Virus record (IMG/VR): IMGVR_UViG_3300037075_000004
Coordinates: 20,146-84,145 of that record
Reading direction: 5' to 3' (one strand)
From: a virus
Lineage: Duplodnaviria; Caudoviricetes
Length of the DNA: 64,000 nt
Positions 432 to 60,711 of this stretch are shown one piece after another. Made by a program: the position numbers and the translations under genes. The notes under the pieces are model-generated. The model was not told the origin of the DNA, did not search any database, and saw only the letters and a program-made list of their open reading frames with translations. How positions within the stretch are numbered: position 1 is the first letter of the stretch; every line of letters begins with the position of its first letter.

Positions 432-1901
432 CTATAACACATCGTCATTCTGAACCAATATCATCTGATTCCTTTTGAGAACGATGAGCATAAATTCGCT
501 CAACATCGTTCCTCTCACGTCATCAAACGTGTCCACAGAAATGTCCCCTCCGCCTGCACCAACATTTGCAACGCCTGGTATGACCTTGTTGATACGGGTA
601 CGGTTCTCTCCGTTGTAGTTCTTGTAGCCCAAAGCTAGGTTCTTCATCTTGAAGGTAGCAGCATCTTCGATATCGCCACGGATGGTCACTTCCACATCGG
701 GAACGATGAAGCCGAGACCTGTGAAGAAATCGTCGAAAGCTGTTGCACCGTAAGCTGTCGGGTCGCTAAGAGAGGGCAGTTCTTTTATTGTGGTGTAGAC
801 TCCGTTCTTGTTTATAGTACGGAAGGCTACATTAAGTTCTGTCCATTCTTTCATTAGGCGGGTTCCGCCTGCGAACTCTTTCAGGAAGTCAAGCCCTGCG
901 TTCTCGATCTGTTTGTACAGTTCACTACCGCAGAAGAAGGTAACATTCCTGTTGGCTATACCCTGAGATATAAGCAGAGGTTTGAGGTCATCGAAATCAG
1001 TATATCCATAGGCGGATGTGTAGTACTGTTTCATACCACCATCTACTAGGTGCTGAAGAAGACCCACCGTACCTGTAGGTGCGATGCTGTTGCTATCCCT
1101 GTCACTCTGGTTGAGTGCTGTAGCGGTAAGTGACTGTCCGATGAACAGTTCATCATTGATGTACTTACTCAGTAGGAAATCAGCTTCCATGGATGCCTTG
1201 GTGAAGATACCTGTTCCACCGCCACGCAGTTTCTCATAGTATCTCTCGTTGGACTGCTGACTACCGGTCATTGCCCAGTCGGCTTTCTTTGTTGAGGTAT
1301 AGAAATACCTTGTATAGAAGCCTGCTGATTTGGGTTTACCACTCTGGACGCCGTTGGGATAGTTACCTCCGGTTACCATCAGCTTAGTGGCTGTGGGGAT
1401 GGTCACATTAATCCTGTCAAGGATGTTTTTACCATAGAGAGTGTAGCTCTTTAGCACACCATCGGCAGCATCAACAGCCTGTACCTGCCATTCCGAAGGC
1501 ATTGTAGCCTTAACACCAGCATTAGTTATATACTTGGCGGGAACGACAACGATGTCATTTATTGACAGGTATGCGTTATCGGTTGTCCCACCAAACTCAG
1601 CGGCTGCCAAGTGAAGTGTCCATGCGGCACCTGCGGCTACTGCGCCAGAGGCACCAAAGGTCTCAACTGTCTTGACGAATGATCCTTCTTCAAACAATTT
1701 CTTTTGCGGGCCTGCAATCGGTACTATTGATCCGGTCATGTACAGGAACTCCAAGAGTCCTATCCCCGGGCCATACCTCTTCACGATCTCCCCCCATATC
1801 TGGGGTACTTGCATGTCTGTATCGTACAGCGATGCCCATACACTATTATACCCTGTATTTAGGGTGTTGCTTGTTACAGCGGGTTTACTTAAAGTCGACA
1901 T
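432..1901 (-). CDS. major capsid protein (putative)
   Basis: 489 aa; last gene of a terminase-portal-scaffold series and followed by a terminator; size and position match crAss-like head modules. Called from context, not from alignment. Confidence 0.75.
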   Translation of the reverse strand: MSTLSKPAVTSNTLNTGYNSVWASLYDTDMQVPQIWGEIVKRYGPGIGLLEFLYMTGSIVPIAGPQKKLFEEGSFVKTVETFGASGAVAAGAAWTLHLAAAEFGGTTDNAYLSINDIVVVPAKYITNAGVKATMPSEWQVQAVDAADGVLKSYTLYGKNILDRINVTIPTATKLMVTGGNYPNGVQSGKPKSAGFYTRYFYTSTKKADWAMTGSQQSNERYYEKLRGGGTGIFTKASMEADFLLSKYINDELFIGQSLTATALNQSDRDSNSIAPTGTVGLLQHLVDGGMKQYYTSAYGYTDFDDLKPLLISQGIANRNVTFFCGSELYKQIENAGLDFLKEFAGGTRLMKEWTELNVAFRTINKNGVYTTIKELPSLSDPTAYGATAFDDFFTGLGFIVPDVEVTIRGDIEDAATFKMKNLALGYKNYNGENRTRINKVIPGVANVGAGGGDISVDTFDDVRGTMLSEFMLIVLKRNQMILVQNDDVL

Positions 1902-1925
1902 TTTAAATTAAAAATAAGCGTTAGT

Positions 1926-3086
1926 TTATATTTCTCCATTTGCTAACGCTGCACTCAGGCTCTTGCCGGGAAGTTTCGGCTCGAGATCGTTGTCATCAGT
2001 GGCTGTGGTCGTATTGGGTTGTACGTCATTATGTAATTCTGCGTCTACTTTCTTTTGTACGGATGTCTGACCATGTTTTACTGCTATCTCCCATATCTTT
2101 GGCAGGTTTTCGTAAACCATGAAGGCGTTCCGCAGGTCTATTGCCGACTGTAGATTCTCCTCTGTCGGCTCCATCCCCGCATCTATAAAAGTAGCCTGAA
2201 ACATATCTCCAAGTTTTGACTTATAGTCTGAAGGAACATCGTAATCTCCTAACTCTGGTATTCTTTCGTCTTTAAATTTATCAAACTGCGAGAACTTAGC
2301 TTTAAGAGGTTCAGTCGCCTGTATCCTCTTTTGCAGGTCTTCCGCTTCCTTCGCTTGGCGTTCCTCGGCTGTCACCGTCTTCGGTAACTCGATTCCGCTT
2401 GTAAGGGATTTGATATTTGCTCTTGCACCTTTTGCATCTATGGCTATCTTGGTCTTGGCGATACTCGACCATTCTTCAGGTTTAGTCTCGGGATCAATAC
2501 CATATTTGTCCAAGAGGGCAACACGGATATCCGACTCGGCAAGAGTGGGTAAATCCATTTTCTGCTCCTTGATAAGTACATCCAAGTCCCCCATCTTACT
2601 CAAGTCCGACATTGCAATCTCCTGCAACACGAACGGGTCTTTATCGGGATACTTGTCAAGCAACTGCTGTGCGACATACGCACTACGCACCAGAGGTTTA
2701 GATAAAAATTCTGAGTTGCCAGCGTTTTTTATTTCCTCAATCTGTTGTTTGTAGGCTTCAATCTCCTTGGCATATGACTCTGCCTGTTTGACTTTAGGTT
2801 CATACTCAGCTATCTTTTGCTGAAGACCCAAGACATTCTTGACATCATCATCGCCTTTAAACGAAGTATTGAAGCGTTTATTGAAATCTTCAAAGAACTT
2901 ATCCGGTTGTGGTTCGCTAACTTTAGCGGGCTGTGCCGGTTCAGCCGGTGGTGTTACTACTGTGGGTTCCGTCACGGGTGCCTGTGCACTTGGCTCGGGT
3001 GCTGGTTCCACACTATTGGGTGTACTATCCACTCTTTGTTCGGGTGGTGTAGTAAACCGTTTTAAACCATCATCATTTCCTAACAT
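1926..3086 (-). CDS. capsid scaffolding-like protein
   Basis: 386 aa; Pro/Glu-rich disordered N-terminus (PAPEPSAQAPVTEP), acidic helical/coiled-coil body; directly upstream of the capsid gene. Confidence 0.6.
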   Translation of the reverse strand: MLGNDDGLKRFTTPPEQRVDSTPNSVEPAPEPSAQAPVTEPTVVTPPAEPAQPAKVSEPQPDKFFEDFNKRFNTSFKGDDDVKNVLGLQQKIAEYEPKVKQAESYAKEIEAYKQQIEEIKNAGNSEFLSKPLVRSAYVAQQLLDKYPDKDPFVLQEIAMSDLSKMGDLDVLIKEQKMDLPTLAESDIRVALLDKYGIDPETKPEEWSSIAKTKIAIDAKGARANIKSLTSGIELPKTVTAEERQAKEAEDLQKRIQATEPLKAKFSQFDKFKDERIPELGDYDVPSDYKSKLGDMFQATFIDAGMEPTEENLQSAIDLRNAFMVYENLPKIWEIAVKHGQTSVQKKVDAELHNDVQPNTTTATDDNDLEPKLPGKSLSAALANGEI

Positions 3087-3122
3087 ATGTTTCTGTTTCT
3101 TGTTTAGGGTACAAAGTTAACA

Positions 3123-3398
3123 CTATTTTTTATCTTGTTTTTGTCGCCTCTTTTCCCGAAGCACAAGGATGACGTTGCCGAGGGAGGCTCCAACAGCCGC
3201 AAAAAGTAAGTAATAGAAGTTGTGCGTATATTCGATCACCCCGACACCCGCACCCATCTGCAAGAGGAACGTCAGTATCGTTGTTGTTGCTATCTGTAGT
3301 CTGTTTAACGCTATGATGAACCATGAACTTAGAAAATCAAGTAATCCGAAACCTAATAAAATCAAAACTGCTATGCCAATGTGAAAGTTACTTTCCAT
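3123..3398 (-). CDS. small multi-pass membrane protein
   Basis: 91 aa, about three hydrophobic segments, basic C-terminus (REKRRQKQDKK). Confidence 0.65.
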   Translation of the reverse strand: MESNFHIGIAVLILLGFGLLDFLSSWFIIALNRLQIATTTILTFLLQMGAGVGVIEYTHNFYYLLFAAVGASLGNVILVLREKRRQKQDKK

Positions 3399-3420
3399 GG
3401 GCGGAGATATTAGTGAATAA

Positions 3421-3732
3421 TTATGGCGTTGTCATCGCACCCTGCCCTTCAGTATTAGAATTTGCGTTATTTGGTGTATTTAATGCGTTTTGCGCCCCCA
3501 ATGGCTCTTGCGGGGTATTACCTGCCGGAGAAGAGATCGTGCCTCCTGCGGCATTATTTGGCGTCACAGGGGGTGTGTTTTGCATATTCTGTATGCTCTG
3601 CACGCTCTCGAAGGCATGATAATTGGCTTTTGCCTGTGCAAACTTACCTATTAACTGCGGATCATCGAGTCCCATTGGGGAACTTGCGATGATATTTTGG
3701 AATATCTTGAGTTCGTCTGCTGCTGATAACAT
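3421..3732 (-). CDS. hypothetical protein (head module)
   Basis: 103 aa abutting the portal stop; N/P/T-rich tail. Confidence 0.65.
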   Translation of the reverse strand: MLSAADELKIFQNIIASSPMGLDDPQLIGKFAQAKANYHAFESVQSIQNMQNTPPVTPNNAAGGTISSPAGNTPQEPLGAQNALNTPNNANSNTEGQGAMTTP

Positions 3733-3734
3733 AT

Positions 3735-6104
3735 CTATGTGTTTGCTGGTTGTAACCCCTTTTCGGCATCTGCCGCCTGCTGTAGTTGTTTTAAGAATTG
3801 GTAATTATATTCTTTGGTGAGTAGTTGATCCTTACCCACCTGTCTCATCTGTTCTATAGCGGCCTTACCTTTATTCATGTTAGTATCGACGGCCATCTGA
3901 CCTTGCTGCTTGGACTGTTCTGCCTGTGCGTTAGCCTGTGCCTGCTGTTGTATAACTGCTGCCTGCTGTTGCTGTGCCTCCTGCTTATTCTTACTGATGA
4001 TATATCTCATCTGCTGTACCAATTCATACATATCCTCGCCCCTGTCGAGTGCAGTCTCGAAGAACATAGCATCTGGTAGGTCTATACCTGGTCTCTGCTC
4101 TCTCACATTCTGTAGTGCTATGCTTATCCATTCGAGGAACTTGGCCTTTTGTCTCTGATCGGGTTTGGCTTTTAGTGAGATACCATACTGTACACCCTCA
4201 TCTTCCATGGTGAGCATGGCATCCATGTCTGCCGGTGAAATGATCCCACCATAGGCTTCTCTCTGCCTGTCACTATTCCGTAGTCCAATCTGTATCCTAC
4301 GCATAAGACTTGTAGAGACACTCTGTTTTATCTCGAAGATAGCATCTAAGATAGGTTTAAGGACATTAGTTGTAACTTGCATGGCTATATCCTGATTACC
4401 TTTTGTGGGGTCTCCCGCAGGCGTGGCTATGCTGAGAAGATTTATGCCGGTCAGCTTCTCAAGTAGTGTGAACTGCATCTGCATGGCCTCCATGGTCTCC
4501 TGCACCCTCGCACCGAGTCCCCCGTCAAGAGGCGTCACCGGTGTGGCTGCCCCGCCAGAGTACATACCCGAGGGTGTATTAGCATAAGAATAGAGTAGTG
4601 TACCTGTCTGCCTGTACATCTTTAGTACCTCTGCCGGTTTAAGTTTCTGCCCGCCAAAGGTCACCTGTGCCAGCATAGAAGTGTTTATTGCCACTCCCCT
4701 CTCTATCATCATAGCGAGTGAGTTCTGCCATCTGAGGAATAGTTGAGAAATCTGATCTAAGATAGGTATAGCCCTTTTCATAATAGAAGGCTGAAGTAAC
4801 TGTTCTACATGGAAAGAGAGTTGTGGTTTGGATAGTCCTTCGCGGGATGCCATGGGCACAACACCATAATCAAAGACATAATCGGTATTGAGCACCCAGA
4901 AACACCTGCGGATGACCCTCTTATAGATCATCTTGACTTCCTGGCTCGCTCCGGCCTTCTTAGCTTCTTCGGTCAAGTCTCTTATCGGTGAGTCATATCG
5001 CAAATCTATGATACTGTCACGCCCTCTAAAGCTCCTATAATAAAGTTTCTTCTGTACATCTGTATCTATCCATTCTGTCTCAAAGATTGGTACTTTAAAC
5101 CCATCATATCTATAAGTACCTGTTGTAGGGTCTATTTCGGAATAGAAGTTCTGCCACCTGTCCCTTGGGTTACCGTATAGTGTGTAACAGGCTTTGGCGA
5201 GCGACTGCCACTGCGACTCAGGCACGAGAGGTAACTTATCCCGAAGGTTAGATATAGTCCAGTAACAGAAATATCCCACATATTCCGAATCACCATAGTC
5301 ATATTCATTGGAGAACTGCATGACGAGCCGTGCAGGGTCTACATACTTAACTTTCCATTTGTTATCTTCGGTATCGAAATAATCCCGAACCGCCCCATAG
5401 TTCAAAACTACTAAATCATCTACTACTTTCTTTCTTACTGTTCCATCCCAATCACTTATGTTCATAGAATGTCTCGTAAGTTTCTGCATGGCCTTTGCTA
5501 TGGCGAGCTTAAACCCATCCTGTGCCTCGAACATAGCCAATTCCTCTGGTGACTTGGGAAGTATCACATCCTCATCAACGGGTATTCCTGCGTTTCTTTT
5601 ATACTCGACCTGCCAGTCAGCATTCTTCGCCTCGCAGAGCTTTACATATTTTTGCTGCTCTTTTAGTTCCTGAGAATTAGAGTCTATGGTGTCACAGTAG
5701 ATGTCGTAGTCCAACTTATCGAACATGCCATGGATGGCATTCATGATAGCGGGCGCGGGTGAGACATTTTGCCACATAATATTCATCCATCCCTCCCTCT
5801 TGACCACTCGACCTACGGGCGTATCGTCGAAGACGGTAAAGTTAGTCTCTGCTCCGTCACTCAATCCATCGTTAAGAAGCCAACTTTTATACTGATTCAC
5901 ATCATTTTCCCCTCTACTATAATCTCGTACTATAGCAAAGTCCCTATAACCAGTTATGCCCCATGAAGTTTTATTGCGTAAAAATAAGGAATATATGGCT
6001 TGAGCATTTTTTCTATGGTAGACATCCCCCTTGAGGGCTGGATCAATATCACGCTGGGGGAATCCCCACTCCGAATTTGAATACTCTATAAGTACGGGAA
6101 TCAA
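3735..6104 (-). CDS. portal protein (putative)
   Basis: 789 aa between TerL and scaffold/capsid genes; Gln/Ala-rich coiled-coil C-terminus typical of P22-/crAss-like portals; TTG start. Confidence 0.75.
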   Translation of the reverse strand: MIPVLIEYSNSEWGFPQRDIDPALKGDVYHRKNAQAIYSLFLRNKTSWGITGYRDFAIVRDYSRGENDVNQYKSWLLNDGLSDGAETNFTVFDDTPVGRVVKREGWMNIMWQNVSPAPAIMNAIHGMFDKLDYDIYCDTIDSNSQELKEQQKYVKLCEAKNADWQVEYKRNAGIPVDEDVILPKSPEELAMFEAQDGFKLAIAKAMQKLTRHSMNISDWDGTVRKKVVDDLVVLNYGAVRDYFDTEDNKWKVKYVDPARLVMQFSNEYDYGDSEYVGYFCYWTISNLRDKLPLVPESQWQSLAKACYTLYGNPRDRWQNFYSEIDPTTGTYRYDGFKVPIFETEWIDTDVQKKLYYRSFRGRDSIIDLRYDSPIRDLTEEAKKAGASQEVKMIYKRVIRRCFWVLNTDYVFDYGVVPMASREGLSKPQLSFHVEQLLQPSIMKRAIPILDQISQLFLRWQNSLAMMIERGVAINTSMLAQVTFGGQKLKPAEVLKMYRQTGTLLYSYANTPSGMYSGGAATPVTPLDGGLGARVQETMEAMQMQFTLLEKLTGINLLSIATPAGDPTKGNQDIAMQVTTNVLKPILDAIFEIKQSVSTSLMRRIQIGLRNSDRQREAYGGIISPADMDAMLTMEDEGVQYGISLKAKPDQRQKAKFLEWISIALQNVREQRPGIDLPDAMFFETALDRGEDMYELVQQMRYIISKNKQEAQQQQAAVIQQQAQANAQAEQSKQQGQMAVDTNMNKGKAAIEQMRQVGKDQLLTKEYNYQFLKQLQQAADAEKGLQPANT

Positions 6105-6928: not shown

Positions 6929-6952
6929 AGATTTTAAGCACTTTAGCGGGAG

Positions 6953-7232: not shown

Positions 7233-9845
7233 TTATTTTTTCTCTCTTCCCTCTCTAGAATGGCGATCTATGTTAAGTATTTTTTGGATTTCTCGCGGTA
7301 CATATCCGCTTCCATCTAGGTCTATACTATTATCATTATTATTACCTCCAAAAAAGTCTCGATATCTGGACTTGCTCCCCAATAATGCGAATCCAAAGGC
7401 TGTTTTCAAATCTAAGTGGGTGAAACTTTCAACTCCCCTAAAAAGTTTGATTTCGTTTAGTAAGTCATCATGGTTCTCTACGTGACCTCTTAATTCAATA
7501 TAATCCTTATATTCCCTTATTAATTCCTGATGTGTTTCTTGTCCTGTCCACTTACCCGGGAGTTTCTTTGGTCTCCCATCTAAACCCAACTCATATAAGA
7601 AATATCCAGCATAACCTCGTTTAAATACATGAGATATGAACGCCTCTACGTTCCATTCAGGGAACATCATCGCACCAAAATACTGACATGCCATTATCAC
7701 ATCTTCAAAATATTCATCCTGCGTAGCGGGACGATAACTATAACTCAATATACATTTAAAACTATCCCATTCTTTTTTGGCCTTGCCGTGATCTATGGAA
7801 TCATCATATTCCCAAAGTATTGCTATACCTCCATTACTTTGGCGGGAATTAGACAAACTAAATCCTCTTTTGCTGTTAATTTTTGCCTCGGCCTCTCGCA
7901 TATTCCTGAAGGCATCTATACCACAAGTAAACCTCTGCCCGTTTATCGGGCGCCAAGATTTTACTATTCTCTGCCCTTGCCCATCCCAAACATCTATCAA
8001 TTCCCTCCGATTAGTCATTGCTTGTGGGATATCCATAGATAATCTGAACTTAGGCATATCGGGGTTGGTCTCCCACTTAACTTCTCCATCGGGATAACTA
8101 TCACGATAAAAGAATCCTACTTTATAAGGTGGTTTACCTAAAGACTTTAGGCGGTTTACCTCTCCAAGACGCTTGTCCACAATCTCAAGATTATATCCTA
8201 CATTCCCCGATGACCCGAGCCAACACTCCGCCCAAGAGAACGGACTCTTACGCCTTATACTGCGATATGTCTCAAGAGACTGTGGCGTGTTCTCAGCAAG
8301 TAGTGCGTCCCTCTCCTCCTGTAGCATCTGTCTCGCACCTTTCTTAGCAACTGCGAAGATGGCGTAGGGTGATAATTTTATCTGTCTCTCCGTGGGTGCC
8401 TCGATGACTGACTTGCCAAACCTGTCTATGAATCCCTCCATTCTCAGGTATGCCGGTATGAATATCCTTGCGAACCCCGAAACAGTCTGACCCTTGATGG
8501 GTACCCGCCTATAGAAATCACTCATCATACACATACGATAGTAAGGTGCCGAGTCGGACTCCATCTCCTCTACCGTGGACGGGTTCTTCACATATGCTCC
8601 TTTCAAAATGTTTATCCCCATACCCGTTGACATGGTGAATTTATTGACATTCCATCTCTCGAAGATGTTGATATTCAGATTACTGGATTTCCCCTGCTCG
8701 TCATTAAGCAGACCATTCAATCTATCGCCTTCATTCTTGAATAGTCCCCCTGAATCTGAGAATGTGATAGAGCTACCAAGTCCTCCCTGTACATAGACAT
8801 TCGGCGGCACATCAAGCCTCAGAACAGTTGGGCGCCTGTTGCCCTCCCACATTGGTTTAAGGCACATAGGCAGGGTATCGAAGGCCGGGAGTAGTTTCTT
8901 TTTGTAATGTATTTCTGCGTTATTGCCCTCGAAGGATATTATGGTGCTAAAGAATGAATAGTTTGTAGTAGAACCTTTAAGAATCTTATGTAATGCCTCA
9001 TGCGTTGCGCCGGTTCTACGGGTCTTTGGCTCGACATCACCGAAGAATAGTCGCCTGCCAAGGTCTATTATCTCGTACCCACCGTCTTTCTTTATTGCTC
9101 TGCCCGTTTCCTGATCTATGTCTTTAAATGTCTCAGTACAGTTCTCTAGGTACCATGCGAAGCAAAACTTTCGGCGGACATCATCTCTGTACTCGGGATA
9201 TGTCTCAGCTTCGGCAATATAGTAGAAGTTCAGAAAATCGAAGTAATCAGGGGGCAGAAATGTAGGTTCGCCATCGTTATAGAACCAGTACCCGTAAGTC
9301 CTGCACCACCATACCTTCTGTAACCATTTTATCTCCTCTTGCAGGTTTTCTTTTTCCTGTTCAAATATCTCCCAGAATTTAAGATAGAACTTGTAACCCT
9401 GTATGGTGTCCTGCCTGTTACGTTTCTCTATCTCATAGAGGTCATTTAAGGCTTTCTTTTCTATCTTTTTGAAGTTCTCCGGTACTTCGAGCCGTCTAAA
9501 GTACTGCTCATCCTCGGATAGTCCGTAGTTATCTATTTTCTTTAGATTCTTTGGCGGGGAGGGCATAGAGAAATATATTGGCGTCAAATCTTGGTCATTT
9601 TCATTAATTAATTCCCAGAGTCTCGTACCATCTTCCCTAAACTGGTACTCGGTGGGTTGCTCATCATTAATAAACTTGGGTAACTCCGGCTTATATCCCG
9701 CCTCATATGGGCTGAAACCCCATATATCCTCTTCGGCAATAAGGCTTACTATGTTCTCTGGCTTGAGTTGAAATTTCTTTTCTTCTTCCTGATATTCTTG
9801 CGATGACTCGAATGAAAGTTTGCCTTTCGTTTTTTTACGACCCAT
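7233..9845 (-). CDS. terL: terminase large subunit
   Basis: 870 aa; KTRRTGAT Walker-A-like motif, LLNDEQGK Walker B, nuclease region (CGID...SNGG...Y..RP...EDVIMACQYFG...EWN, DLKTAFG). Confidence 0.85.
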   Translation of the reverse strand: MGRKKTKGKLSFESSQEYQEEEKKFQLKPENIVSLIAEEDIWGFSPYEAGYKPELPKFINDEQPTEYQFREDGTRLWELINENDQDLTPIYFSMPSPPKNLKKIDNYGLSEDEQYFRRLEVPENFKKIEKKALNDLYEIEKRNRQDTIQGYKFYLKFWEIFEQEKENLQEEIKWLQKVWWCRTYGYWFYNDGEPTFLPPDYFDFLNFYYIAEAETYPEYRDDVRRKFCFAWYLENCTETFKDIDQETGRAIKKDGGYEIIDLGRRLFFGDVEPKTRRTGATHEALHKILKGSTTNYSFFSTIISFEGNNAEIHYKKKLLPAFDTLPMCLKPMWEGNRRPTVLRLDVPPNVYVQGGLGSSITFSDSGGLFKNEGDRLNGLLNDEQGKSSNLNINIFERWNVNKFTMSTGMGINILKGAYVKNPSTVEEMESDSAPYYRMCMMSDFYRRVPIKGQTVSGFARIFIPAYLRMEGFIDRFGKSVIEAPTERQIKLSPYAIFAVAKKGARQMLQEERDALLAENTPQSLETYRSIRRKSPFSWAECWLGSSGNVGYNLEIVDKRLGEVNRLKSLGKPPYKVGFFYRDSYPDGEVKWETNPDMPKFRLSMDIPQAMTNRRELIDVWDGQGQRIVKSWRPINGQRFTCGIDAFRNMREAEAKINSKRGFSLSNSRQSNGGIAILWEYDDSIDHGKAKKEWDSFKCILSYSYRPATQDEYFEDVIMACQYFGAMMFPEWNVEAFISHVFKRGYAGYFLYELGLDGRPKKLPGKWTGQETHQELIREYKDYIELRGHVENHDDLLNEIKLFRGVESFTHLDLKTAFGFALLGSKSRYRDFFGGNNNDNSIDLDGSGYVPREIQKILNIDRHSREGREKK

Positions 9846-10367: not shown

Positions 10368-10859
10368 TTACGCAACCAATGCGAGGATCGCCGCCAGAGT
10401 ATGACTTACTCTTAGTCTTACAACCTTAAATCCATCATCTTCTCTTATCCATATATAGGACTGTGTAGCGGAATAGCTATCTGGTACTGCACAGGCATAA
10501 GCTATCTGCCAGATGAAGAAAGTATGAGACGCAGTACTCTCGGTGGGGTCACCCTTGGGGTAGACATTCAGTGTTATATGGGTATGGGTCATTGCCGTGT
10601 CCATATGTACAATGATCTGTGCTGCCGAATGATCGGTCTCCATATAATTAGAATCGCACCTATGGTCAAACGGGTTATCAAAAAAATACATAGATGAGTG
10701 AGCATTTGTTATGGTCGAATGATCCCGTAACCCGTCAATACCGTTAGTGTTCAATAGGTAGCTTGTGCCATTGGTGGCATCCCTTACCCTTTTTTGTCCT
10801 TTTACCTGCCACTTATAGACTGTCGCTATAAAGAGGCTTGTTGATCTGTAATGTGCCAT
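10368..10859 (-). CDS. hypothetical protein, paralog of 10873-11451
   Basis: 163 aa; shares LFIxxVYxW, AQIIxxxDTA, ITLxxYP and IAY blocks with its neighbour. Confidence 0.75.
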   Translation of the reverse strand: MAHYRSTSLFIATVYKWQVKGQKRVRDATNGTSYLLNTNGIDGLRDHSTITNAHSSMYFFDNPFDHRCDSNYMETDHSAAQIIVHMDTAMTHTHITLNVYPKGDPTESTASHTFFIWQIAYACAVPDSYSATQSYIWIREDDGFKVVRLRVSHTLAAILALVA

Positions 10860-10872
10860 TACTCAGTCCTCC

Positions 10873-11451
10873 TTAGAATTCGAACTTCAGTTTCTCGGTG
10901 GTCTCGTCTTCAAATGCCGTCTCTACGGTACTGAAGGTCGTTGAGGTAGAACCACCCCTTACAAGATCAGGAACATCTTCCAATGCCAGGTTGGTCAGTA
11001 CCTCTACTCTCTTGAAACTCCCCTTGTCGTAAACAACCCAACATTTATGGGCGGGATCGGGATTGTATCTCTCAACATAAGCAATAGACGCCCATCCAAT
11101 AGTGGTGTCAACGGTGTCCCTTAATGGAAACTTTGGCGTGCCCCATGGGTTATTAAATGGATATATTGGCAGTGTGATTGCTGTGCTTGCTGGTGCGGTA
11201 TCGGAATATGTAATTATTTGTGCCACCGTCTTGTCACATACGATTCTTGACCATCGTTCCCTGCGATCTCCGATGTTATCGGAATAGAGGAACTCAGACC
11301 CGAGGGCATTAGTTTTCAGGTCTGTAATGAAATAAGGATTCAACACAAACTCACGAAAGCCGTGTTTGGAAATATCGAGTGGTGATACTCGATTCTTGCT
11401 ATCTCGTTGATCTTCCCAGAGATAGACCTTTGTAATAAAGAGAACGCTCAT
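10873..11451 (-). CDS. hypothetical protein, paralog of 10368-10859
   Basis: 192 aa; shared blocks as above; TACCTTTG box at 11501-11508. Confidence 0.75.
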   Translation of the reverse strand: MSVLFITKVYLWEDQRDSKNRVSPLDISKHGFREFVLNPYFITDLKTNALGSEFLYSDNIGDRRERWSRIVCDKTVAQIITYSDTAPASTAITLPIYPFNNPWGTPKFPLRDTVDTTIGWASIAYVERYNPDPAHKCWVVYDKGSFKRVEVLTNLALEDVPDLVRGGSTSTTFSTVETAFEDETTEKLKFEF

Positions 11452-11520: not shown

Positions 11521-11751
11521 TTAATGATTAAATTCAATCTTTATTAATTTCCATCGGTGTTCCTTGTCGTGATGTTCCATGCCCATAATTCTATGTGCCA
11601 ATTCCAATCCTTCCCTGCCGTCAAAAGAATGATGCTTTAATAAAACAGAAAATTCATCATCTTTATCTAATGTAGGATGACATGGGCAATTTCTTTTGGC
11701 GGAATGTCTCCTTAAATCATTAACAGGGATTATATGGAATTCATCTTTCAT
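11521..11751 (-). CDS. small Cys/His protein
   Basis: 76 aa, H-x5-CPCHP...HH motif, possible metal binding. Confidence 0.6.
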   Translation of the reverse strand: MKDEFHIIPVNDLRRHSAKRNCPCHPTLDKDDEFSVLLKHHSFDGREGLELAHRIMGMEHHDKEHRWKLIKIEFNH

Positions 11752-12250
11752 TTTCCATTTCTTTTAATCTTAATCCCTTTTCTTCAGGGAAATTTAGACA
11801 AGCGAATTCACCAAAATATTTAATTGCTGCCCTATCGTAAGCATGTGCGGCATCTATTTCGTTATTGGACACGCCTAAATATATTTGTTTTCTTTTGAAT
11901 TTTATTTTCGCATAAAAATTATTACTACATGGACATTTGAATACTCCCTTGTATTTCCTAAGTAATTTCTTATTAAATGCATTTTGTTGTTGCGTGCAAT
12001 TCCTTAAATTATATCGTTGATTATTGAGAGAATTATGGTCTATGTGATCGACTTGCATACCCTTAGGGGTACTCATTATTAACCGATGCATGTAAATAAT
12101 ATTAGACTTCCCTTTTCTTTTAATATTCCTAACAGCAACAAATTGCCCCTTGGGTTGCCTGTGTGCTGACCATTTCCATTGGTTTAACCAATCGAAATCT
12201 GCATCATCCACAAGTGCAACTTGTTCTCTTGTCAACTTAATCTCTTTCAT
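11741..12250 (-). CDS. HNH endonuclease with AP2 DNA-binding domain
   Basis: MHRLIM...VDHIDHNSLNNQRYNLRNCT (HNH), then YKGV...IYLG...AAHAYDRAAIKYFGEFACLNFP (AP2). Confidence 0.92.
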   Translation of the reverse strand: MKEIKLTREQVALVDDADFDWLNQWKWSAHRQPKGQFVAVRNIKRKGKSNIIYMHRLIMSTPKGMQVDHIDHNSLNNQRYNLRNCTQQQNAFNKKLLRKYKGVFKCPCSNNFYAKIKFKRKQIYLGVSNNEIDAAHAYDRAAIKYFGEFACLNFPEEKGLRLKEMENER

Positions 12251-14046: not shown

Positions 14047-14076
14047 TTTCTTTCTATTATTGCAACAATATTTACT

Positions 14077-14304
14077 TTAGCGGGATTTGCCGACCTTTTT
14101 CCCTTTTTTCTCTAACTGATGATACCTATGCCATGTACTACTTGCATCGCTATCATAAAAGTACCCCCAACTACTCTGGGTAGCGAATTTGGTACCACAA
14201 TTCCGACATTCAATCCACGATTCGTGGGTGCAATCTCCATGACCATAATCATTTCTATAGTTGAGATATATCTCCCCTCCGCATAATACACAAGTCTCTT
14301 TCAT
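14077..14304 (-). CDS. small zinc-ribbon protein
   Basis: CVLCG...C...CRNCG pattern. Confidence 0.6.
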   Translation of the reverse strand: MKETCVLCGGEIYLNYRNDYGHGDCTHESWIECRNCGTKFATQSSWGYFYDSDASSTWHRYHQLEKKGKKVGKSR

Positions 14305-40136: not shown

Positions 40137-40206
40137 AATCCGTTATATTTTTCTGAGGCTTGTGACTGTAACAAATAATAACACAAACCATTTAATAAAT
40201 AAACCG

Positions 40207-45706: not shown

Positions 45707-45763
45707 ATAATTTGCATATCTCAAAAACACTTCATACATTTACATCACTAAAAAACAAGAAAA

Positions 45764-46216: not shown

Positions 46217-46505
46217 CGAGAAATACCACTTATTAAAACTTTATTGGGGGCTGATATTGGAAGATGCCTGTGACAAATTGAATATACCGCCCACAAAAGA
46301 GAATAAAGAAAGATTACATGATTCCCATAAAAAGATATATAGTTGTGATTCTATCTCTGGCCGGCCCTACGAGTATATCAGCGAATTCATTACATATATT
46401 GTGGCCTGGTATGCCACAGAAATGGGAATCTTTTTGAGGACAAGCGGGGCCATGCCACCGGATATAGATGCAATGCCCCTCGAAGAATGTTGGGATTGGT
46501 TATAA
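46194..46505 (+). CDS. NinB-like recombination protein (tentative)
   Basis: LYWG...LH...K...S.S...SEFI..I.AW pattern. Confidence 0.4.
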   Translation: MSSREQNNEKYHLLKLYWGLILEDACDKLNIPPTKENKERLHDSHKKIYSCDSISGRPYEYISEFITYIVAWYATEMGIFLRTSGAMPPDIDAMPLEECWDWL

Positions 46506-48008: not shown

Positions 48009-48304
48009 CCCGCCCAAAGAAATCACTAAGTATCTCTGATCTTATAAATGGAGAGAAAATAGAAGTACCTTATGAAGAAGAAGTAGAAGATATATTAGCA
48101 GAGTTCTTTAGCGGGCGATACGATAACATGGCAAAAAAAATAGAGGCATTCGAGTTGGGACAATGGGGGGCATTCAAGTATATAAAAATTTACCTTTCAT
48201 CAGTGTTTTTGAAGGACTCCGCCCAGGGCCATTATGAAGATATATTAAGGATATTTGGTTATAAAAAAATGTTTGAAATTTACTATCATGGCGAAACGAG
48301 GTAG
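48005..48304 (+). CDS. hypothetical protein
   Basis: 99 aa, overlaps neighbours. Confidence 0.55.
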   Translation: MTRPKKSLSISDLINGEKIEVPYEEEVEDILAEFFSGRYDNMAKKIEAFELGQWGAFKYIKIYLSSVFLKDSAQGHYEDILRIFGYKKMFEIYYHGETR

Positions 48305-49250
48305 ACCTAAGAAGAAATTAGAGCAATTACTGTTCACGGGAGCAGTGATGAACATAGCACCCGATACTACTATCGAGCGTCTTAATCCCATGTTTTTTAG
48401 TCTTGATAAACTGAAGCATCAGCCCGAACCGCTCTATAGGATGGATTCGGTAAACAACAGGTATTACTACCGATTCGAGAATGAGGAGCCAGTATTCTAT
48501 ACATCAGTAACGACACTCATTAAGAATACTTTACCTACTTCACCATTTTTGATTAAATGGATGGTGGATAAAGGTGGTGATGCGGGTAAGGAAGAAGCAC
48601 TTTTGCGGGCGGCCTACGGGACGTTTCTACACTCACAATGTGCCGAATTACTAATCAGTGGCACTTATAATCTTGATGATCTGCCGAAAAAACTTGCTTT
48701 GTTTACGGCAAGCGAGAAGATTACTGCTGAGAAGGAATGGGAAGAGGAACTCAAGAAAGATATCTTGGCCTTTGCTCAGTTTATAATAGATAATGACGTC
48801 AAACCCCTTGCTATTGAGATATGTCTTTATCATCCTTTAGACGGCTATGCCGGGGCACTTGACCTTGTGGCTGAACTTACTTTTAACCGTAAGCGGATAA
48901 TGGCTATAATCGACCTCAAATCGGGTCGCAAGGGGTTTTATGAGAGTCACGAAGTCCAGCTTGGCGCCTATCGTGAGATGTGGAACATACATTTTCCTGA
49001 TACGCCTATTGAAATGGTATTTAACTGGCAGCCGAAGGCTTGGAAGAAAAAACCAACTTACAACTTACAGAACCAGACCAATTCTCAAAACATTCCCAAA
49101 TTACCGCATCTTGTGGCTCTCTCTAAGATTGTGGCCGACCAAAGGGAAGATACTATTACTTTCATATCAGGACAAATAAATGTACTCGAAGGTCTTGATA
49201 AAAATATCAAAGAGATGACATTTACGGAAATTGTAAAAAATAACAAATGA
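48288..49250 (+). CDS. PD-(D/E)XK exonuclease
   Basis: YTSVTTLI...GTFLH...E..LYH...YAGALD...IIDLKSG...QLGAY; likely start MAKRGRP at 48288. Confidence 0.8.
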   Translation: MAKRGRPKKKLEQLLFTGAVMNIAPDTTIERLNPMFFSLDKLKHQPEPLYRMDSVNNRYYYRFENEEPVFYTSVTTLIKNTLPTSPFLIKWMVDKGGDAGKEEALLRAAYGTFLHSQCAELLISGTYNLDDLPKKLALFTASEKITAEKEWEEELKKDILAFAQFIIDNDVKPLAIEICLYHPLDGYAGALDLVAELTFNRKRIMAIIDLKSGRKGFYESHEVQLGAYREMWNIHFPDTPIEMVFNWQPKAWKKKPTYNLQNQTNSQNIPKLPHLVALSKIVADQREDTITFISGQINVLEGLDKNIKEMTFTEIVKNNK

Positions 49251-49519: not shown

Positions 49520-50078
49520 TACCGAGGGATTCGAGTGGTATGACTCATTAGAAGATGCGAAGTCTGATGGCTTTAGCGTGGTTCGGGTTACGTCACTATT
49601 TTGTTTTTTTATGCTAAGGGGTCGATCAATGAATATTACCTTGGAAAATCTTATCCCGATCCCTAATCTTTATTACCTATACAAAGGCAAACCAGATGAT
49701 AAAAGCCCGGAAAGGTTCTATAAGAAAGAATATAGAGGATATAAGATAGAGGAATTGTATTTTTATAAGAACTCTGGCGGGGAATCGGATGCCATAGATA
49801 TCTTCCGTGCCAGATGCAAGAGTGGTGATGTATATTTACTCTTGGATGCCGACCAAAGAGATGAACTAAGTGCTATGTCAGTAAGATTATATAAGAGTCA
49901 CTTTAGCGGGGATGGCACAATACCATGGAAAGTATGGCTCGCCCTCGCAGAAAACGAGATAAGATATCAGGACTTTAAGAGAACGGGAGAGGGCACTACG
50001 GGCTTCAAGAGCCTATGTAAGTTGTTTGAGCAAGATAGCGAGAAGATTTGGAATAAATGTAAACCGCCTAAAGAATGA
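49500..50078 (+). CDS. hypothetical protein
   Basis: 192-aa ORF. Confidence 0.6.
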   Translation: MSRLQSNTEGFEWYDSLEDAKSDGFSVVRVTSLFCFFMLRGRSMNITLENLIPIPNLYYLYKGKPDDKSPERFYKKEYRGYKIEELYFYKNSGGESDAIDIFRARCKSGDVYLLLDADQRDELSAMSVRLYKSHFSGDGTIPWKVWLALAENEIRYQDFKRTGEGTTGFKSLCKLFEQDSEKIWNKCKPPKE

Positions 50079-50610: not shown

Positions 50611-51108
50611 ATGTTATTTATCAACAATACAGGTTCAGTTTCCCGTATCGGATATATTTGCAAGATTGACCCTAAAAATCCCAATGCCATTGTTTATGTA
50701 TCAGCCAATGAGACTAATTGTATTGGTGTTGTTGCCTCATCTGTACCTAATAAAAGCAGGTGTGAGGTAATAACCTTTGGCCCCGCTAAAGTTGTGGTTA
50801 ATGGTAACATAAATAAAGGAGATACTTTAAGATCAAGATTATCTTCTGATGGATCGGCTAATGGAGTAGCATTCAGAGCTAATAGTTCTACACCACCGTT
50901 CTTACAAATAGGTACGGCACTCGAATCGGGAAGGGGACTGATTAAATGTAATATTGGTATTTATTACTTTGGCGGGGGAGGGTCTAACCCGGAAATAGAC
51001 ACTATAGACGGCGGTAATGCAAGTTCCGTGTATGCCATGATGGGAATGATGATGGAGATGCCCTCTGATAGTGATTTGGATATAGTTATAAATGGAGGCA
51101 ATTCATAG
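50611..51108 (+). CDS. DUF2190-like capsid cement/decoration protein (putative)
   Basis: IGVV...CEVITFG...V.GNI.KGD.L...G....IGTALE; TATCTTTG box at about 50588. Confidence 0.5.
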   Translation: MLFINNTGSVSRIGYICKIDPKNPNAIVYVSANETNCIGVVASSVPNKSRCEVITFGPAKVVVNGNINKGDTLRSRLSSDGSANGVAFRANSSTPPFLQIGTALESGRGLIKCNIGIYYFGGGGSNPEIDTIDGGNASSVYAMMGMMMEMPSDSDLDIVINGGNS

Positions 51109-53052: not shown

Positions 53053-53631
53053 ATGAGAATATCCTTAGCGGTCATTACCCGTGGTGAGATACATATAGAA
53101 ACAGCACTATCCTTGATGCATTTACTCAAGGCCACCCCGCATGAGTTCCATATGAACTTTCATAAAGGTACCTATGTACAGGAGATGCGTAACCAATGTC
53201 TTAAAGATGCAAGATCGGTAGATGCAGATTATCTTTTTTTTGTCGATAGTGATGTGGTATTCCCCCCTGATGGGTTAAATAAGCTATTATCGTGTGATAA
53301 AGATATCATTGGCGGGATGTATAACATGAAGTCCGTCCCGCTAAAGACTACTATTAAGCCATGTGATGAGAACGGGGACAGGGTTCTGGTGGAAGAAGTG
53401 AATGTCCCCACAGACAAGATATTCCGTGTCTATGGACTCCCCACGGGCTTCATGCTCATACGTCTTGCCGCTATCAAAAGACTTGAAAATCCCTTCGATT
53501 TTGACAGGAAAGTGCCCGATGAACTGATTGGGGAGGATATTAACTTCTGTATTCATTGTAAGGAGATAGGGTTGGAGATTTGGTGCGATCCCACCATCCC
53601 CATAGGTCATATAGGTTATTATCTATACTAA
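53053..53631 (+). CDS. GT2-like glycosyltransferase
   Basis: RNQC...DYLFFVDSD...KDIIGG.Y...TGFMLI...GEDINFC...GHIG. Confidence 0.82.
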   Translation: MRISLAVITRGEIHIETALSLMHLLKATPHEFHMNFHKGTYVQEMRNQCLKDARSVDADYLFFVDSDVVFPPDGLNKLLSCDKDIIGGMYNMKSVPLKTTIKPCDENGDRVLVEEVNVPTDKIFRVYGLPTGFMLIRLAAIKRLENPFDFDRKVPDELIGEDINFCIHCKEIGLEIWCDPTIPIGHIGYYLY

Positions 53632-55292: not shown

Positions 55293-56520
55293 AGAACTGC
55301 TTGCATTTGTACACGATCCCCGTAATCCACAGGCAACATATGAACTGGCCTCGTGGTATTATCAGAAAGGTCATACGGCATCAGCACTCGCCTTCTATCT
55401 TCGCACAGTAGAGACTTCCAAGGACGACATACTTACTTACGAATGTTTATGTTTGGTGGGACTTTGCCTACTGAAGCAAGGAGATAGGTTATACCACGCC
55501 AAGGGAGCATTCCTACATGCCATCAACCTACTACCGATGCGCCCCGAAGCATATCACTTGATGAGCAGAACCTGCGAATGGAATAAGGAATGGCAGGATG
55601 CTTATACTTGGGCTAATTTAGGACTCCTGCAAGAAGTTGATATTGATCCTATTGTGGGATTGGAATATTATGGCAGGCAGGCGTTACTCTTTGAGAAGGC
55701 CGTAAGCGGATGGTGGATAAACAGGACAGATGAATGTCTGCTCATCCTTGTAGACCTGCAAAAGAACTACAAATTACCACTTAATATATCGGTGCTTGTT
55801 GAGCAGAATATAGCAAGTGTGTCCATGATAAGGGTGGGTACGGTAAACTACACTCCGCTCAGGCATGATGCCTTCAAGTATAAGTTCTCAGGTATCAGTG
55901 ATATTTACAATAACTATTCCCAGGCGATGCAGGATATGTTCGTACTATCAGTACTTAACGGGAAACGGAATGGCACTTATCTTGAAGTAGGAAGTAACGA
56001 CCCGTTTTATTTGTCAAATACCGCACTTCTTGAGAAGGATTTTGGATGGATGGGGGTGTCGATAGATATAAACAGGGATATGGTGGAGTCTTTTCGGCGC
56101 CAAAGGACTAATGTGTGCCTGCATGAAGACGCACTAAAAGCTGATTGGTACACGATATTGCAGAAGAATAATATGCCCGGCGATATAGACTACTTGCAAG
56201 TTGATTGTGACCCGCCAGAGAATAGTCTAAGCATCTTGTTTAATATACCATTTGACGACTATAGGTTCGGTGTTATCACTTTTGAGCATGATTATTACAC
56301 CCGTCCCGAGTCTGCCGTAAGGGCAAGGAGCAGGAATTTCTTGAGGCTATTAGGATATAAATTGATTGTTGCCAATGCCTCCGTTGGTGACCATCACGCT
56401 TTTGAGGATTGGTGGGTACATCCAGATTTGGTAGATAATAGCGTGGTAAACAGCATGATAGTGTCTGATAAGGATTTTGTGGATATTGATTCTTATTTCT
56501 TCGATCGCCCGCTAAAATAA
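55285..56520 (+). CDS. TPR-containing FkbM-type methyltransferase
   Basis: N-terminal TPRs (A.YELA..Y, P.RPEAY), then SQAMQD.FV...GTYLEVGS...SNT..LE...W.G...IDYLQVD, FEDWW. Confidence 0.8.
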   Translation: MNRELLAFVHDPRNPQATYELASWYYQKGHTASALAFYLRTVETSKDDILTYECLCLVGLCLLKQGDRLYHAKGAFLHAINLLPMRPEAYHLMSRTCEWNKEWQDAYTWANLGLLQEVDIDPIVGLEYYGRQALLFEKAVSGWWINRTDECLLILVDLQKNYKLPLNISVLVEQNIASVSMIRVGTVNYTPLRHDAFKYKFSGISDIYNNYSQAMQDMFVLSVLNGKRNGTYLEVGSNDPFYLSNTALLEKDFGWMGVSIDINRDMVESFRRQRTNVCLHEDALKADWYTILQKNNMPGDIDYLQVDCDPPENSLSILFNIPFDDYRFGVITFEHDYYTRPESAVRARSRNFLRLLGYKLIVANASVGDHHAFEDWWVHPDLVDNSVVNSMIVSDKDFVDIDSYFFDRPLK

Positions 56521-56812
56521 AAATATGTCTCGTTTTTCTTGGAAATCCCAAATATTCGTTTTAAATTTGGTGTGTACTAACATAAAATGAAATGAAAGAT
56601 AGGATACAGGGTGCAATACAAACGCCATTTAAACACAATGGTTGTATTATGAGTGGCAGTAGGCTTAATTTAAAATGGCTACAATTTAAACGATTATTTA
56701 TATCCCCAAGAATTCTATCTAAAAACTAATACAAGTAAGTAAAGGGTGGGAAACCATAGATTCTGTCGTGGTTTACGGCTAAATCGCCCGCTAAAGCAAC
56801 AAATCAATAACC

Positions 56813-59502: not shown

Positions 59503-59671
59503 CTTTCTTGTTTCTTTTAGTTAATGCAATCTTTAGCGGGCGTGGACACACCTCCGGGGGGATGGGCACGCAAATCCCGCTACCGTCCAAATCTGCGTCA
59601 GGATGTGGGCAGTCTTCTATATTTTCGCAGTAGTTACAAGCCTCGAAAGGGTAATCTACTTTACGCATCAT
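59450..59671 (-). CDS. small Cys-rich hypothetical protein
   Basis: CNYC...CPHP...C...CP; overlaps the endolysin start. Confidence 0.4.
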   Translation of the reverse strand: MMRKVDYPFEACNYCENIEDCPHPDADLDGSGICVPIPPEVCPRPLKIALTKRNKKDGISRNIQPSNRSRPSE

Positions 59672-59889
59672 TTTTTGATGAATTTAACATCAACAAGCCA
59701 TACAAGCACAACAAATGCCACACCAGCAAGGAATGAATATACTTCTTTGAAGTCCTTGTGGGGTATCAGAGCAAAACCAAGTAGTACTATGGCGGGGATC
59801 ACCCACCATTTGAAATACTTTTTAACAAAGGCCAGTGCTGCCTTGAGACCGGCCAGAGCTTTTGCTAAAAATGCTTTAATCTTTTCCAT
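59668..59889 (-). CDS. small membrane protein (holin-like)
   Basis: 73 aa, two TMs. Confidence 0.55.
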   Translation of the reverse strand: MEKIKAFLAKALAGLKAALAFVKKYFKWWVIPAIVLLGFALIPHKDFKEVYSFLAGVAFVVLVWLVDVKFIKK

Positions 59890-59894
59890 GTTTT

Positions 59895-60257
59895 TTAATT
59901 ATGATTATTATCATGTTCTGCAAGTAGTTTCTGCATCCTTGCCTCTAATTTTTTTATCCTCGTATCGTGTTCCTTGAGTTCAATCTGAATATTAGTTATT
60001 ATATCCTGAATCCTTTTTATAACCTTATTTTGCTCGTCAATCTTTTTGAATATCTTGGTGTTCTGCTCATCTATCAATTCCCGTACCACGCCAATAATTA
60101 TAGTGGCATGTTCGTCATAGGTTTTAGTGATAAATTCTTGTATTACTTCGTCCTGCCGGTCGAAACAGCGCTTCATAAAAAGTTGATCTGCGGGGGTGAA
60201 GGACATCTCCTTGCGGGCATCGTCTGACATTGGTATGTCACGGTAGTTATCGCTCAT
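59895..60257 (-). CDS. coiled-coil hypothetical protein
   Basis: 120 aa, heptad pattern in C-terminal half. Confidence 0.6.
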   Translation of the reverse strand: MSDNYRDIPMSDDARKEMSFTPADQLFMKRCFDRQDEVIQEFITKTYDEHATIIIGVVRELIDEQNTKIFKKIDEQNKVIKRIQDIITNIQIELKEHDTRIKKLEARMQKLLAEHDNNHN

Positions 60258-60291
60258 TTTATCTTCTTTATTTGAATGTTTATGTTTTTCT

Positions 60292-60711
60292 TTACTTCCT
60301 CTGCGTTTGCGCTATCGGCCGAATACTGTTGTTTTTTTTTGACTCAAAGGCATTCATCCAATTAAGAATATCATCTTTTGTTGCTGTGTTAATGATATGC
60401 TTGCCTAACTGTGTCTTTATTACCCCCACCGTGCCCGCTAAAGAGTTTATATCTTCTTTAGTCTGCCTCTGGTCAAATTTTATCTCTAATAACTGTATCC
60501 CAAAAGAATCTATCTTGGTCATAATCTCCTTCTGCTGTGTGATGATCTGCTCTTGCTTGGCCTCCTTATTATTCTTTTCCAGTATCTTCTTGTCGTGCTT
60601 GGCGATCACGAAAGTGGCACCGCTCGCTAAAGCTAAGAACACAGGGATAATCTTAATAATTATACTCAAGTCATTTATCCAAGTTAATATCTTTTGGAAT
60701 GTTATCTTCAT
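60292..60711 (-). CDS. TM plus coiled-coil protein
   Basis: 139 aa, one N-terminal TM. Confidence 0.6.
   Translation of the reverse strand: MKITFQKILTWINDLSIIIKIIPVFLALASGATFVIAKHDKKILEKNNKEAKQEQIITQQKEIMTKIDSFGIQLLEIKFDQRQTKEDINSLAGTVGVIKTQLGKHIINTATKDDILNWMNAFESKKNNSIRPIAQTQRK

Follow-up and report, generated by a model that had tools for sequence, protein, structure and literature searches.

The genome of an uncultured tailed phage represented by IMG/VR record IMGVR_UViG_3300037075_000004, of which we analysed a 64-kb window (bases 20146-84145 of the 84,145-bp contig), is marked throughout by a short asymmetric DNA word, CTYTDGCGGG. The word is enriched far above chance, is selected at the level of DNA, comes close to saturating the positions at which the encoded proteins permit it, has a polarity that follows the genome strand, and is conserved within one clade of phages among which the positions of its copies turn over. 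An additive, near-saturating and polar pattern of this kind, with turnover of positions, is what a cis-signal leaves when a machine moving on DNA reads it time after time. Because the contig ends overlap by 116 bp (with one mismatch), the contig represents a genome unit of 84,029 bp that was assembled as a circle; positions of copies and genes given below are those in the window unless marked as genome positions.

Single-position variants define the word as C-T-[T/C]-T-[A/G/T]-GCGGG, with C never found at position 5 and with CATT and CTAT as minor variants. The window holds 18 matches to CTTTAGCGGG (12 plus, 6 minus), for which dinucleotide shuffles gave an expectation of 0.11 and a maximum of 1, and 33 matches to CTTTNGCGGG (26 plus, 7 minus) against 0.28 expected. 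Strict copies of CTYTDGCGGG number 47 in the window (33 plus, 14 minus) and 58 in the 84,029-bp genome (40 plus, 18 minus), rising to 71 (49:22) with the minor variants included, and the density is one copy per about 1.4-1.45 kb. The preliminary description of this DNA had reported the enrichment from copies counted by eye; every coordinate and strand that it listed proved exact, including all 18 copies of CTTTAGCGGG, and the enrichment is stronger than was first noted. An unbiased k-mer scan of the genome likewise recovered the word as the top dispersed 10-mer, and the same scan of Cellulophaga phage phi46:3, used as a negative control, returned no comparable k-mer, so the enrichment is not generic to phage genomes. 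The only competing k-mer, GTGCGGCTACCAATA, was set aside: it occurs on one strand only and is a 27-bp tandem repeat within open reading frame (ORF) 42833-43891 (plus strand, 352 residues), where about 18 head-to-tail units of a 9-residue repeat extend from 43186 to 43680 and are the source of the genome's most strand-biased k-mers. A full-text literature search for the word returned only primers.

The word amounts to about 17 bits, the flanks of its copies are not conserved, and positions 1-4 hold as much information as the core. The preliminary description had drawn attention to an AGCGG core shared with the Chi sites of Bacillus and Staphylococcus. That resemblance exists but goes no further, since positions 1-4 are equally informative and position 5 is degenerate, with nearly half of the CTTTDGCGGG copies having G or T there and not A.

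Several lines of evidence indicate that selection for the word acts on the DNA itself. When synonymous codons were shuffled within genes, 12.1 +/- 1.4 copies were left of the 58 observed, and the enrichment therefore persists under a codon-aware null. About 11 of the copies left are the intergenic ones, which the shuffle does not touch, so that the 47 copies observed in genes compare with about one expected. The intergenic copies (11 of 58) are themselves in excess, as roughly 5% of the genome lies outside permissive ORF calls. Copies do occur in different reading frames, as first described, but that account was incomplete: 36 of the 47 in-gene copies share a single phase per orientation, with word positions 1, 4, 7 and 10 at codon third positions, and this is the phase in which the word is most easily created without changing the protein. 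Occupancy is high, with 47 of 85 synonymously accessible protein positions (55%) spelling the word and many of the empty ones only one or two mismatches short of it. The protein sequences have also shifted toward word-compatible peptides, of which there are 85 against 53.5 +/- 6.8 after residues are shuffled within each protein.

Comparison with orthologues in an 85-kb relative showed that just 1 of 27 mapped sites is shared and that, at several mapped sites, the orthologue has the identical peptide while the word-spelling codons are found only in this genome, as is the case for the CTTTGGCGGG copy antisense to terL at 7837-7846 (plus strand). A protein motif or a codon-usage artefact is ruled out as the source of the word by the codon shuffle together with these orthologues that encode the same peptide in other codons. 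The word is also present in a large island of nucleotide-sugar and glycosyltransferase genes (the glycan island) although several island genes have no orthologue in other carriers; plus-strand copies there are CTTTGGCGGG at 20576-20585, 25044-25053 and 26598-26607 and CTTTTGCGGG at 29880-29889. We conclude that the word is a cis-acting DNA signal and neither an RNA nor a protein feature.

The orientation of the copies tracks the genome strand and not the gene strand. The strand bias of 40:18 is significant genome-wide (binomial p=0.005) and is not predicted by local base composition. Genes are on the minus strand from ~58 kb round the circle to ~33.7 kb and on the plus strand from 33.8 to 58 kb, and plus and minus copies number 21:7 in minus-strand genes and 12:7 in plus-strand genes (homogeneity p=0.52), which bears out the plus bias previously described under both gene blocks; the sense/antisense ratio, by contrast, differs between the two blocks (p=0.015). 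With coding potential controlled, 67% of accessible positions are occupied in the plus orientation and 39% in the minus (p=0.015). A 28.8-kb stretch (4.65-33.5 kb) contains 19 plus copies and no minus copy, the final plus copy in it being CTCTTGCGGG at 31006-31015. Spacing overall is random-like, with a coefficient of variation (CV) of 0.90 compared with 0.98 for random placement. Minus copies are clustered (CV 1.37) and somewhat concentrated between 50.7 and 60.5 kb (5 against 2), where numbers are small and no symmetric flip is seen.

To place the word in its lineage, we retrieved full-length relatives from IMG/VR with a divergent TerL alignment and used the reversed word as the control in counts. 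Strict copies number 14 in G001 (71% TerL identity), 12 in G410 (65%), 17 in G411 (52%) and 37 in G412 (48%), compared with 0-2 for the control. There are no strict copies in G413 (44%, a fragment), G414 (32%) or G415-G417 (about 30%). Unbiased k-mer scans put CTTTAGCGGG at the top in G001 and G412 and a dialect, CTATAGCGGG, at the top in G410; among non-carriers they gave no alternative word in G413, G414 or G415 and only a modest CGAAAGCG(AC) in G416. In the latter, a distant and word-free genome (L205-L208), CGAAAGCG has 12 copies (10:2) and CGAAAGCGAC has 6 (6:0). The five phages that share the word extend down to 48% TerL identity and range from 37 to 43% G+C. A further 17 non-redundant short contigs of relatives (94.8 kb) contain 21 copies and none of the reversed word, 16 antisense and 5 sense to terL/portal, so that their majority orientation is that of this genome. 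Occupancy of accessible positions in a five-genome comparison is 50% here, 32% in G412, 21% in G410, 19% in G411 and 15% in G001, and 1 of 83 in the non-carrier G414. Pooled over the carriers, with terL set on the minus strand, it is 84 of 228 in the plus orientation and 50 of 248 in the minus (p=6.5e-5). The conservation anticipated in the preliminary description is thus found, as four full-length relatives carry the word or its dialect with the same polarity; word and polarity are conserved across the clade while positions turn over, and the word is restricted to that one clade. As an aside on the protein used for these alignments, four clade TerL homologues (P0008, P0025, P0028 and P0070) are about 1,190 residues long and have precomputed Pfam hits to PF05204, PF05203 and PF14528, which we take to be homing-endonuclease/intein families; an intein appears to be inserted in these terminases. 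TerL homologues recorded at E<=1e-20 number 213.

The gene set is that of a tailed phage and comprises, besides the glycan island, a large terminase, portal, collagen-like tail fibre, endolysin, C5-cytosine methyltransferase and several nucleases, among them a PD-(D/E)XK exonuclease, a VRR-NUC-like nuclease and a Metallophos/SbcD-like protein. A Shine-Dalgarno sequence precedes few genes (13 of 119), and TAnnTTTG boxes are found upstream of 22 of 119 against about 4% expected; these signals fit a Bacteroidota-type host. Among cultured phages, those of Cellulophaga and Flavobacterium have the nearest TerL, with an identity of only about 24%. Searched in six frames for Prim-Pol, Toprim_2, DnaB_C and DNA_pol_A, the genome gave no matches, with positive controls responding; no FtsK-like motor was identified in the phage, and no annealing protein or nuclease inhibitor was recognised among its proteins. 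The window contains no Rfam families and no tRNAs, and its 31-40 kb portion shows nothing telling by way of genome-end or origin features.

The preliminary description had anticipated a Bacteroidota chromosome with the same replichore-skewed motif. We found none: across 401 Bacteroidota genomes sampled evenly over the phylum, the phage host itself being unidentified, the 10-mer is enriched in 0, with at most 26 copies each and usually no more than the reversed-word control, compared with a density of about 240 per Mb in the phage. The 7-nt core TDGCGGG likewise shows no enrichment in 41 Bacteroidota genomes (0.37-1.8 times control). When the inverted-pair form of the word was scanned in all species genomes there were many matches, most of them to a GTAG-headed palindromic element in metagenome-assembled genomes (MAGs) of Chloroflexota, Planctomycetota and Acidobacteriota. 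This element, which resembles repetitive extragenic palindromes (REP/REPIN), has the form GTTCGTAGTGACC(C)G-CTTTAGCGGG-loop-CCCGCTAAAG-CGG(G)TCACTACGAAC (loci L030-L149, e.g. L031:5786-5815); it is present in Ca. Trichofilum aggregatum of the Chloroflexota, where the 10-mer has 363 copies, and in Gemmataceae and other Planctomycetota MAGs, and Pyrinomonadaceae MAGs have a variant with different flanks. A link to the phage word was rejected since the phage copies have no GTAG head, no complementary arm and no conserved flanks, and the shared 10-mer is most likely a coincidence.

We lean, tentatively, toward the view that the word works like Chi, as a polar, additive cis-signal for an enzyme tracking along the phage DNA. 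Under this proposal, an enzyme tracking from a free end of the phage DNA, whether an AddAB/RecBCD-class helicase-nuclease or a motor comparable to it, would read a correctly oriented copy on one strand, and each copy would switch or attenuate it, so that the concatemer, during replication or packaging, would gain slightly in protection or recombinogenicity with each extra copy. Both the tracking nature of the reader and the consequences of recognition are inferences. With no recognisable primase, helicase or polymerase, the phage presumably depends on host replication and would meet host end-processing nucleases. Published Chi-rich phages offer the closest parallel: LLS has 23 Chi sites, one per 1.86 kb, of which 20 are actively oriented, with clustering toward one end, and in MD8 the two orientations number 32 and 0 (PMC12315714). 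Bacteroides has AddAB, the Chi sequence of which was unknown as of 2010 (PMC2887965). Of the possibilities raised at the outset, a Chi-like, translocase-orienting or protein-binding signal, the general class of a polar, selected DNA signal with turnover of positions stands, and the expected matching host chromosome did not appear among the genomes sampled.

Several observations weigh against a Chi-like role. A Chi in use by a host has to recur often along that host's chromosome, and neither the 10-mer nor its core is enriched in the Bacteroidota genomes sampled; we do not assign the word to the Chi family because this feature was not encountered in the genomes searched. Five divergent phages share the word, which points to a broad host group and makes it less likely that the sample simply missed it. 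About 31% of copies are in the opposite orientation, more than in LLS or MD8, and a word of about 17 bits is, to our knowledge, longer than any known Chi. The phage also has its own PD-(D/E)XK exonuclease and VRR-NUC-like nuclease, whereas recombination modules are absent from the Chi-rich phages published so far (PMC12315714).

With the word carried by none of the Bacteroidota chromosomes sampled, its reader may be encoded or modified by the phage and not be an unmodified host Chi system. It is plausible, though well short of probable, that word and reader both belong to the clade, with a phage protein reading CTYTDGCGGG as a polar 'self' mark that is absent from the host chromosome. The use of such a mark could lie in turning off a nuclease, in loading or orienting the motor for packaging, or in directing nicks to one strand, and the idea overlaps both the Chi-like reading and the nicking alternative considered below.

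The non-structural genes common to all carriers, from which a phage-encoded reader might come, are a four-gene cassette at 44796-46505, a pair at 10368-11451 and a 108-residue gene at 33840-34166. Two of the cassette products have 150 and 103 residues. Candidate readers are a zinc-finger/HNH (ZnF-HNH) protein, an adjoining winged-helix-like protein and the small proteins encoded next to terL. The winged-helix-like protein (123 residues; 44796-45167, plus strand) is encoded by the first gene in the cassette, is found in all carriers and has weak winged-helix matches (EarA, Sso10a); a minus-strand CTCTTGCGGG copy is located within its gene at 44857-44866. The pair at 10368-11451 (minus strand; 163 and 192 residues) is just upstream of terL in all carriers, and a small terminase without a family match is possible there. 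The ZnF-HNH protein (180 residues; 45164-45706, plus strand) is present in all five carriers and is the main phage-encoded candidate, as a candidate only. It combines an invariant C-x4-C-x9-C-x2-H finger with an HNH-type nuclease (block HH..GR.GDYY.D..H), and its gene contains two plus-strand copies of the word: CTTTGGCGGG at 45202-45211, in the part that codes for the zinc finger and the one copy shared at an orthologous position with relative G001, and CTTTTGCGGG at 45424-45433, which encodes the protein's CxxC. Separately, the N-terminal finger module of this protein occurs in tandem in P0263 and P0265 (6 and 10 times, in 300 and 484 residues, respectively), which may be DNA-reading finger arrays.

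Other proteins were rejected as readers. An HNH-AP2 endonuclease (11741-12250, minus strand) is missing in two carriers, G410 and G412, and is found in the non-carrier G414. It is an I-HmuI-like HNH protein fused to an AP2/ERF-type domain with clear matches to plant AP2 solved on DNA, and its gene is at a different genome position in G001, which fits a mobile homing endonuclease. The C5-methyltransferase, a protein resembling phosphoadenosine phosphosulfate (PAPS) reductase and a DUF1376 protein are each absent from most carriers.

We regard as possible but rather doubtful the alternative that copies are nicking sites for a phage nuclease, with ZnF-HNH as the candidate, producing strand-specific interruptions in virion or replicating DNA as in T5. 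The ZnF-HNH gene is not only present in all five carriers but has close IMG/VR orthologues only in the four others, and an asymmetric, strand-preferring word suits one-strand nicking, as close nicks on opposite strands would break the DNA. Its relatives match Pfam HNH, LHH and Zf_WRKY19, and almost all structural matches to its AlphaFold model are HNH nucleases, the best being the Gme HNH nicking endonuclease (Z 6.5, rmsd 3.2 over 79 residues), followed by McrA and the phage GVE2 HNH protein. These Z-scores, none of which reaches 8, are middling, however, and confidence in the model is moderate (mean pLDDT 72). Nothing ties the protein to the word; its family has 983 representatives, most presumably in word-free phages, and distant homologues occur in the word-free G415 and G416. 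The 31% of copies on the other strand include an inverted pair 22 nt apart, and T5 tolerates loss of its nicks, which makes near-saturating selection for nick sites hard to explain.

An unsampled host could itself have the word on its chromosome, as its true Chi or as another polar word of the kind represented by the FtsK-orienting polar sequences (KOPS), and the phage would then have gathered it to use or evade host machinery as the lambdoid LLS does with E. coli Chi; in our estimation this is unlikely. The pattern does match that of the published Chi-rich phages (PMC12315714), the commonest variant contains AGCGG, cited in the preliminary description as the Chi of Bacillus subtilis, and Bacteroides AddAB had no known Chi as of 2010 (PMC2887965). 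The 401 genomes were moreover drawn from a very large phylum. The lack of enrichment of the 10-mer in those 401 and of the core in 41 nevertheless argues against it, particularly as the broad host group implied by divergent phages sharing the word should have been touched by the sample, and positions 1-4 are constrained as strongly as the AGCGG-like part, in which position 5 is degenerate.

Binding sites for a transcription or packaging factor, in the form of one-way blocks by the winged-helix-like protein that act like stoperators or of oriented pac-like sites for a small terminase, also seem improbable. Suitable proteins, the 123-residue winged-helix-like one and the two encoded next to terL, are present in all carriers, and occupancy is at its lowest (7 of 24) for positions in sense within late genes, as if the word hindered one-way transcription. 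The 11 intergenic copies include a cluster at 39.6-42.4 kb and copies that directly follow stop codons or precede start codons: CTTTAGCGGG at 39642-39651 (plus) with ATTATAGGGTTTAG just before it, CTCTAGCGGG at 41109-41118 (minus) 21 nt past an ORF end, CTTTAGCGGG at 41624-41633 (minus) immediately past a stop codon, CTTTTGCGGG at 41746-41755 (plus) with ATTATAGGGTTAG just before it, and CTTTAGCGGG at 56787-56796 (minus) lying 16 nt ahead of an ATG. Four fifths of all copies are in genes, however, and orientation does not flip with gene direction as it does for stoperators. The putative small terminase has no family assignment. We know of no regulator that needs more than 50 sites at saturation and of no precedent for multiple pac sites of such a kind.

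Primase recognition sites (NrS-1 type) that start lagging-strand fragments at a fixed word are very improbable: one copy per about 1.4 kb is in the Okazaki-fragment range and the strand bias could reflect the lagging-strand template, but the reading is disfavoured because the six-frame search gave no Prim-Pol, Toprim_2, DnaB_C or DNA_pol_A match and the spacing is irregular, random-like overall and clustered for minus copies.

Two intergenic copies in the AT-rich small-gene region at 39.6-42.4 kb (39622-39651 and 41729-41755 with their extensions) share an upstream extension, ATTATAGGGTT(T)AG...TA(A)-word, which suggests that a subset of copies there is part of a longer regulatory element. In the same region an inverted CTTTAGCGGG pair at 40569-40600 (40569 plus, 40591 minus; 12-nt spacer) forms a perfect hairpin with a 10-bp stem and a 12-nt loop directly after ORF 40054-40539, with a T-run before it and not after; this hairpin is not conserved in G001.

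The remaining window copies are as follows. On the plus strand CTTTAGCGGG is found at 2921-2930, 6941-6950 (intergenic), 12980-12989, 14075-14084 (intergenic), 15338-15347, 36691-36700 (sense in the C5-methyltransferase gene), 42366-42375, 48106-48115, 49901-49910 and 59531-59540 (in the divergent intergenic region adjoining the endolysin gene), and on the minus strand at 50782-50791, 53337-53346 and 60434-60443. The portal gene has two minus-strand copies in sense, CTCTGGCGGG at 4551-4560 and CTTTGGCGGG at 4650-4659, and terL a second antisense plus-strand copy, CTTTGGCGGG at 9549-9558; CTTTGGCGGG recurs on the plus strand at 15550-15559 and 50967-50976. Plus-strand copies of CTTTTGCGGG are located at 1701-1710 (antisense in a minus-strand gene), 15780-15789 and 48600-48609 (in the exonuclease gene). 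CTCTTGCGGG is at 3505-3514, 30479-30488 and 44367-44376 on the plus strand and at 37408-37417 and 44268-44277 on the minus, CTCTGGCGGG at 40431-40440 and 49772-49781 (plus) and 56211-56220 (minus), and CTCTAGCGGG at 33499-33508 (minus) and 42103-42112 (plus). Outside the window, the genome's longest word-free gap (5.2 kb) is contained in a 2,095-residue tail-region ORF (L023; genome 2530-8817, minus strand) that has no Pfam match and is conserved in all carriers at 22-38% identity. In relative G001 a 12-bp tandem repeat, distinct from the 27-bp one in ORF 42833-43891, is found at either end of the contig.

Among known systems, the REP/REPIN palindromes contain the identical 10-mer as inverted pairs (in Ca. 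Trichofilum aggregatum, Gemmataceae and other MAGs), but there it belongs to a hairpin headed by GTAG (CCCGC-TTTA-GCGGG), and the bacteria are from other phyla and have 53-65% G+C, whereas the phage copies have no complementary upstream arm. The stoperators of L5 and cluster A phages are closer in design, with about 30 copies of an asymmetric 13-bp site that acts in an orientation-dependent manner through a phage-encoded reader. They differ in being intergenic and oriented with transcription, flipping between the arms, whereas here 47 of 58 copies are in genes and gene direction is ignored. The DNA uptake sequences of Neisseria (DUS) and Pasteurellaceae (USS) are likewise 9-12 nt long, have arisen within genes under DNA-level pressure at about one copy per kb and have lineage dialects, as CTATAGCGGG is in G410, and one inverted pair forms a hairpin here. 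They are, however, a property of competent-host chromosomes with little polarity, and the phage word is polar and occurs in one phage clade only.

KOPS (E. coli GGGNAGGG) and the SpoIIIE recognition sequences (SRS; B. subtilis GAGAAGGG) are likewise polar words with a G-rich part. They orient the FtsK and SpoIIIE translocases and are read on double-stranded DNA by a winged-helix domain, and a winged-helix-like protein is likewise conserved in carriers of the phage word. KOPS are host chromosome words whose polarity flips at the origin and dif, and no such convergence is evident in the phage word. The nick sites of T5 and of phiKMV-like and tf-like Pseudomonas phages similarly follow an asymmetric consensus, running through genes and spacers with a preferred strand, and here a phage HNH-type nuclease is available as a candidate enzyme. 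Those nicks are on one strand at few sites, with no known selection toward saturation, whereas 18 of 58 copies here occupy the opposite strand and any nicks at the word would be putative.

The nearest resemblance is to the Chi-rich phages LLS (E. coli) and MD8 (Pseudomonas), which likewise contain a short asymmetric word far above chance, at a similar density (one per 1.86 kb in LLS and one per 1.45 kb here), with one orientation dominant irrespective of gene direction, long single-orientation runs and copies evidently accumulated by selection (Genome Res 2025, PMC12315714). Their word is the known Chi of the host and abundant on its chromosome, whereas none is found in the candidate hosts sampled here; the present word is also longer (10 nt, with two degenerate positions) and less strongly polar (69%), and nucleases are encoded by this phage itself. 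Genome-wide selection on DNA itself is known from few cases, among them polar words such as Chi, KOPS and the uptake sequences, and the pressure here is unusually strong, with half of the accessible positions filled and proteins shifted to compatible peptides. If the reader is a host AddAB, a Bacteroidota lineage would gain its first Chi sequence, and the word would provide a computational host assignment for these phages; if it is phage-encoded, the word would represent a way of marking viral DNA as self that is new in kind, analogous to Chi or KOPS but owned by the virus. In both cases the word offers a simple handle for testing, since its copies can be added or removed synonymously, and each known polar genome word has led to a DNA-handling machine.

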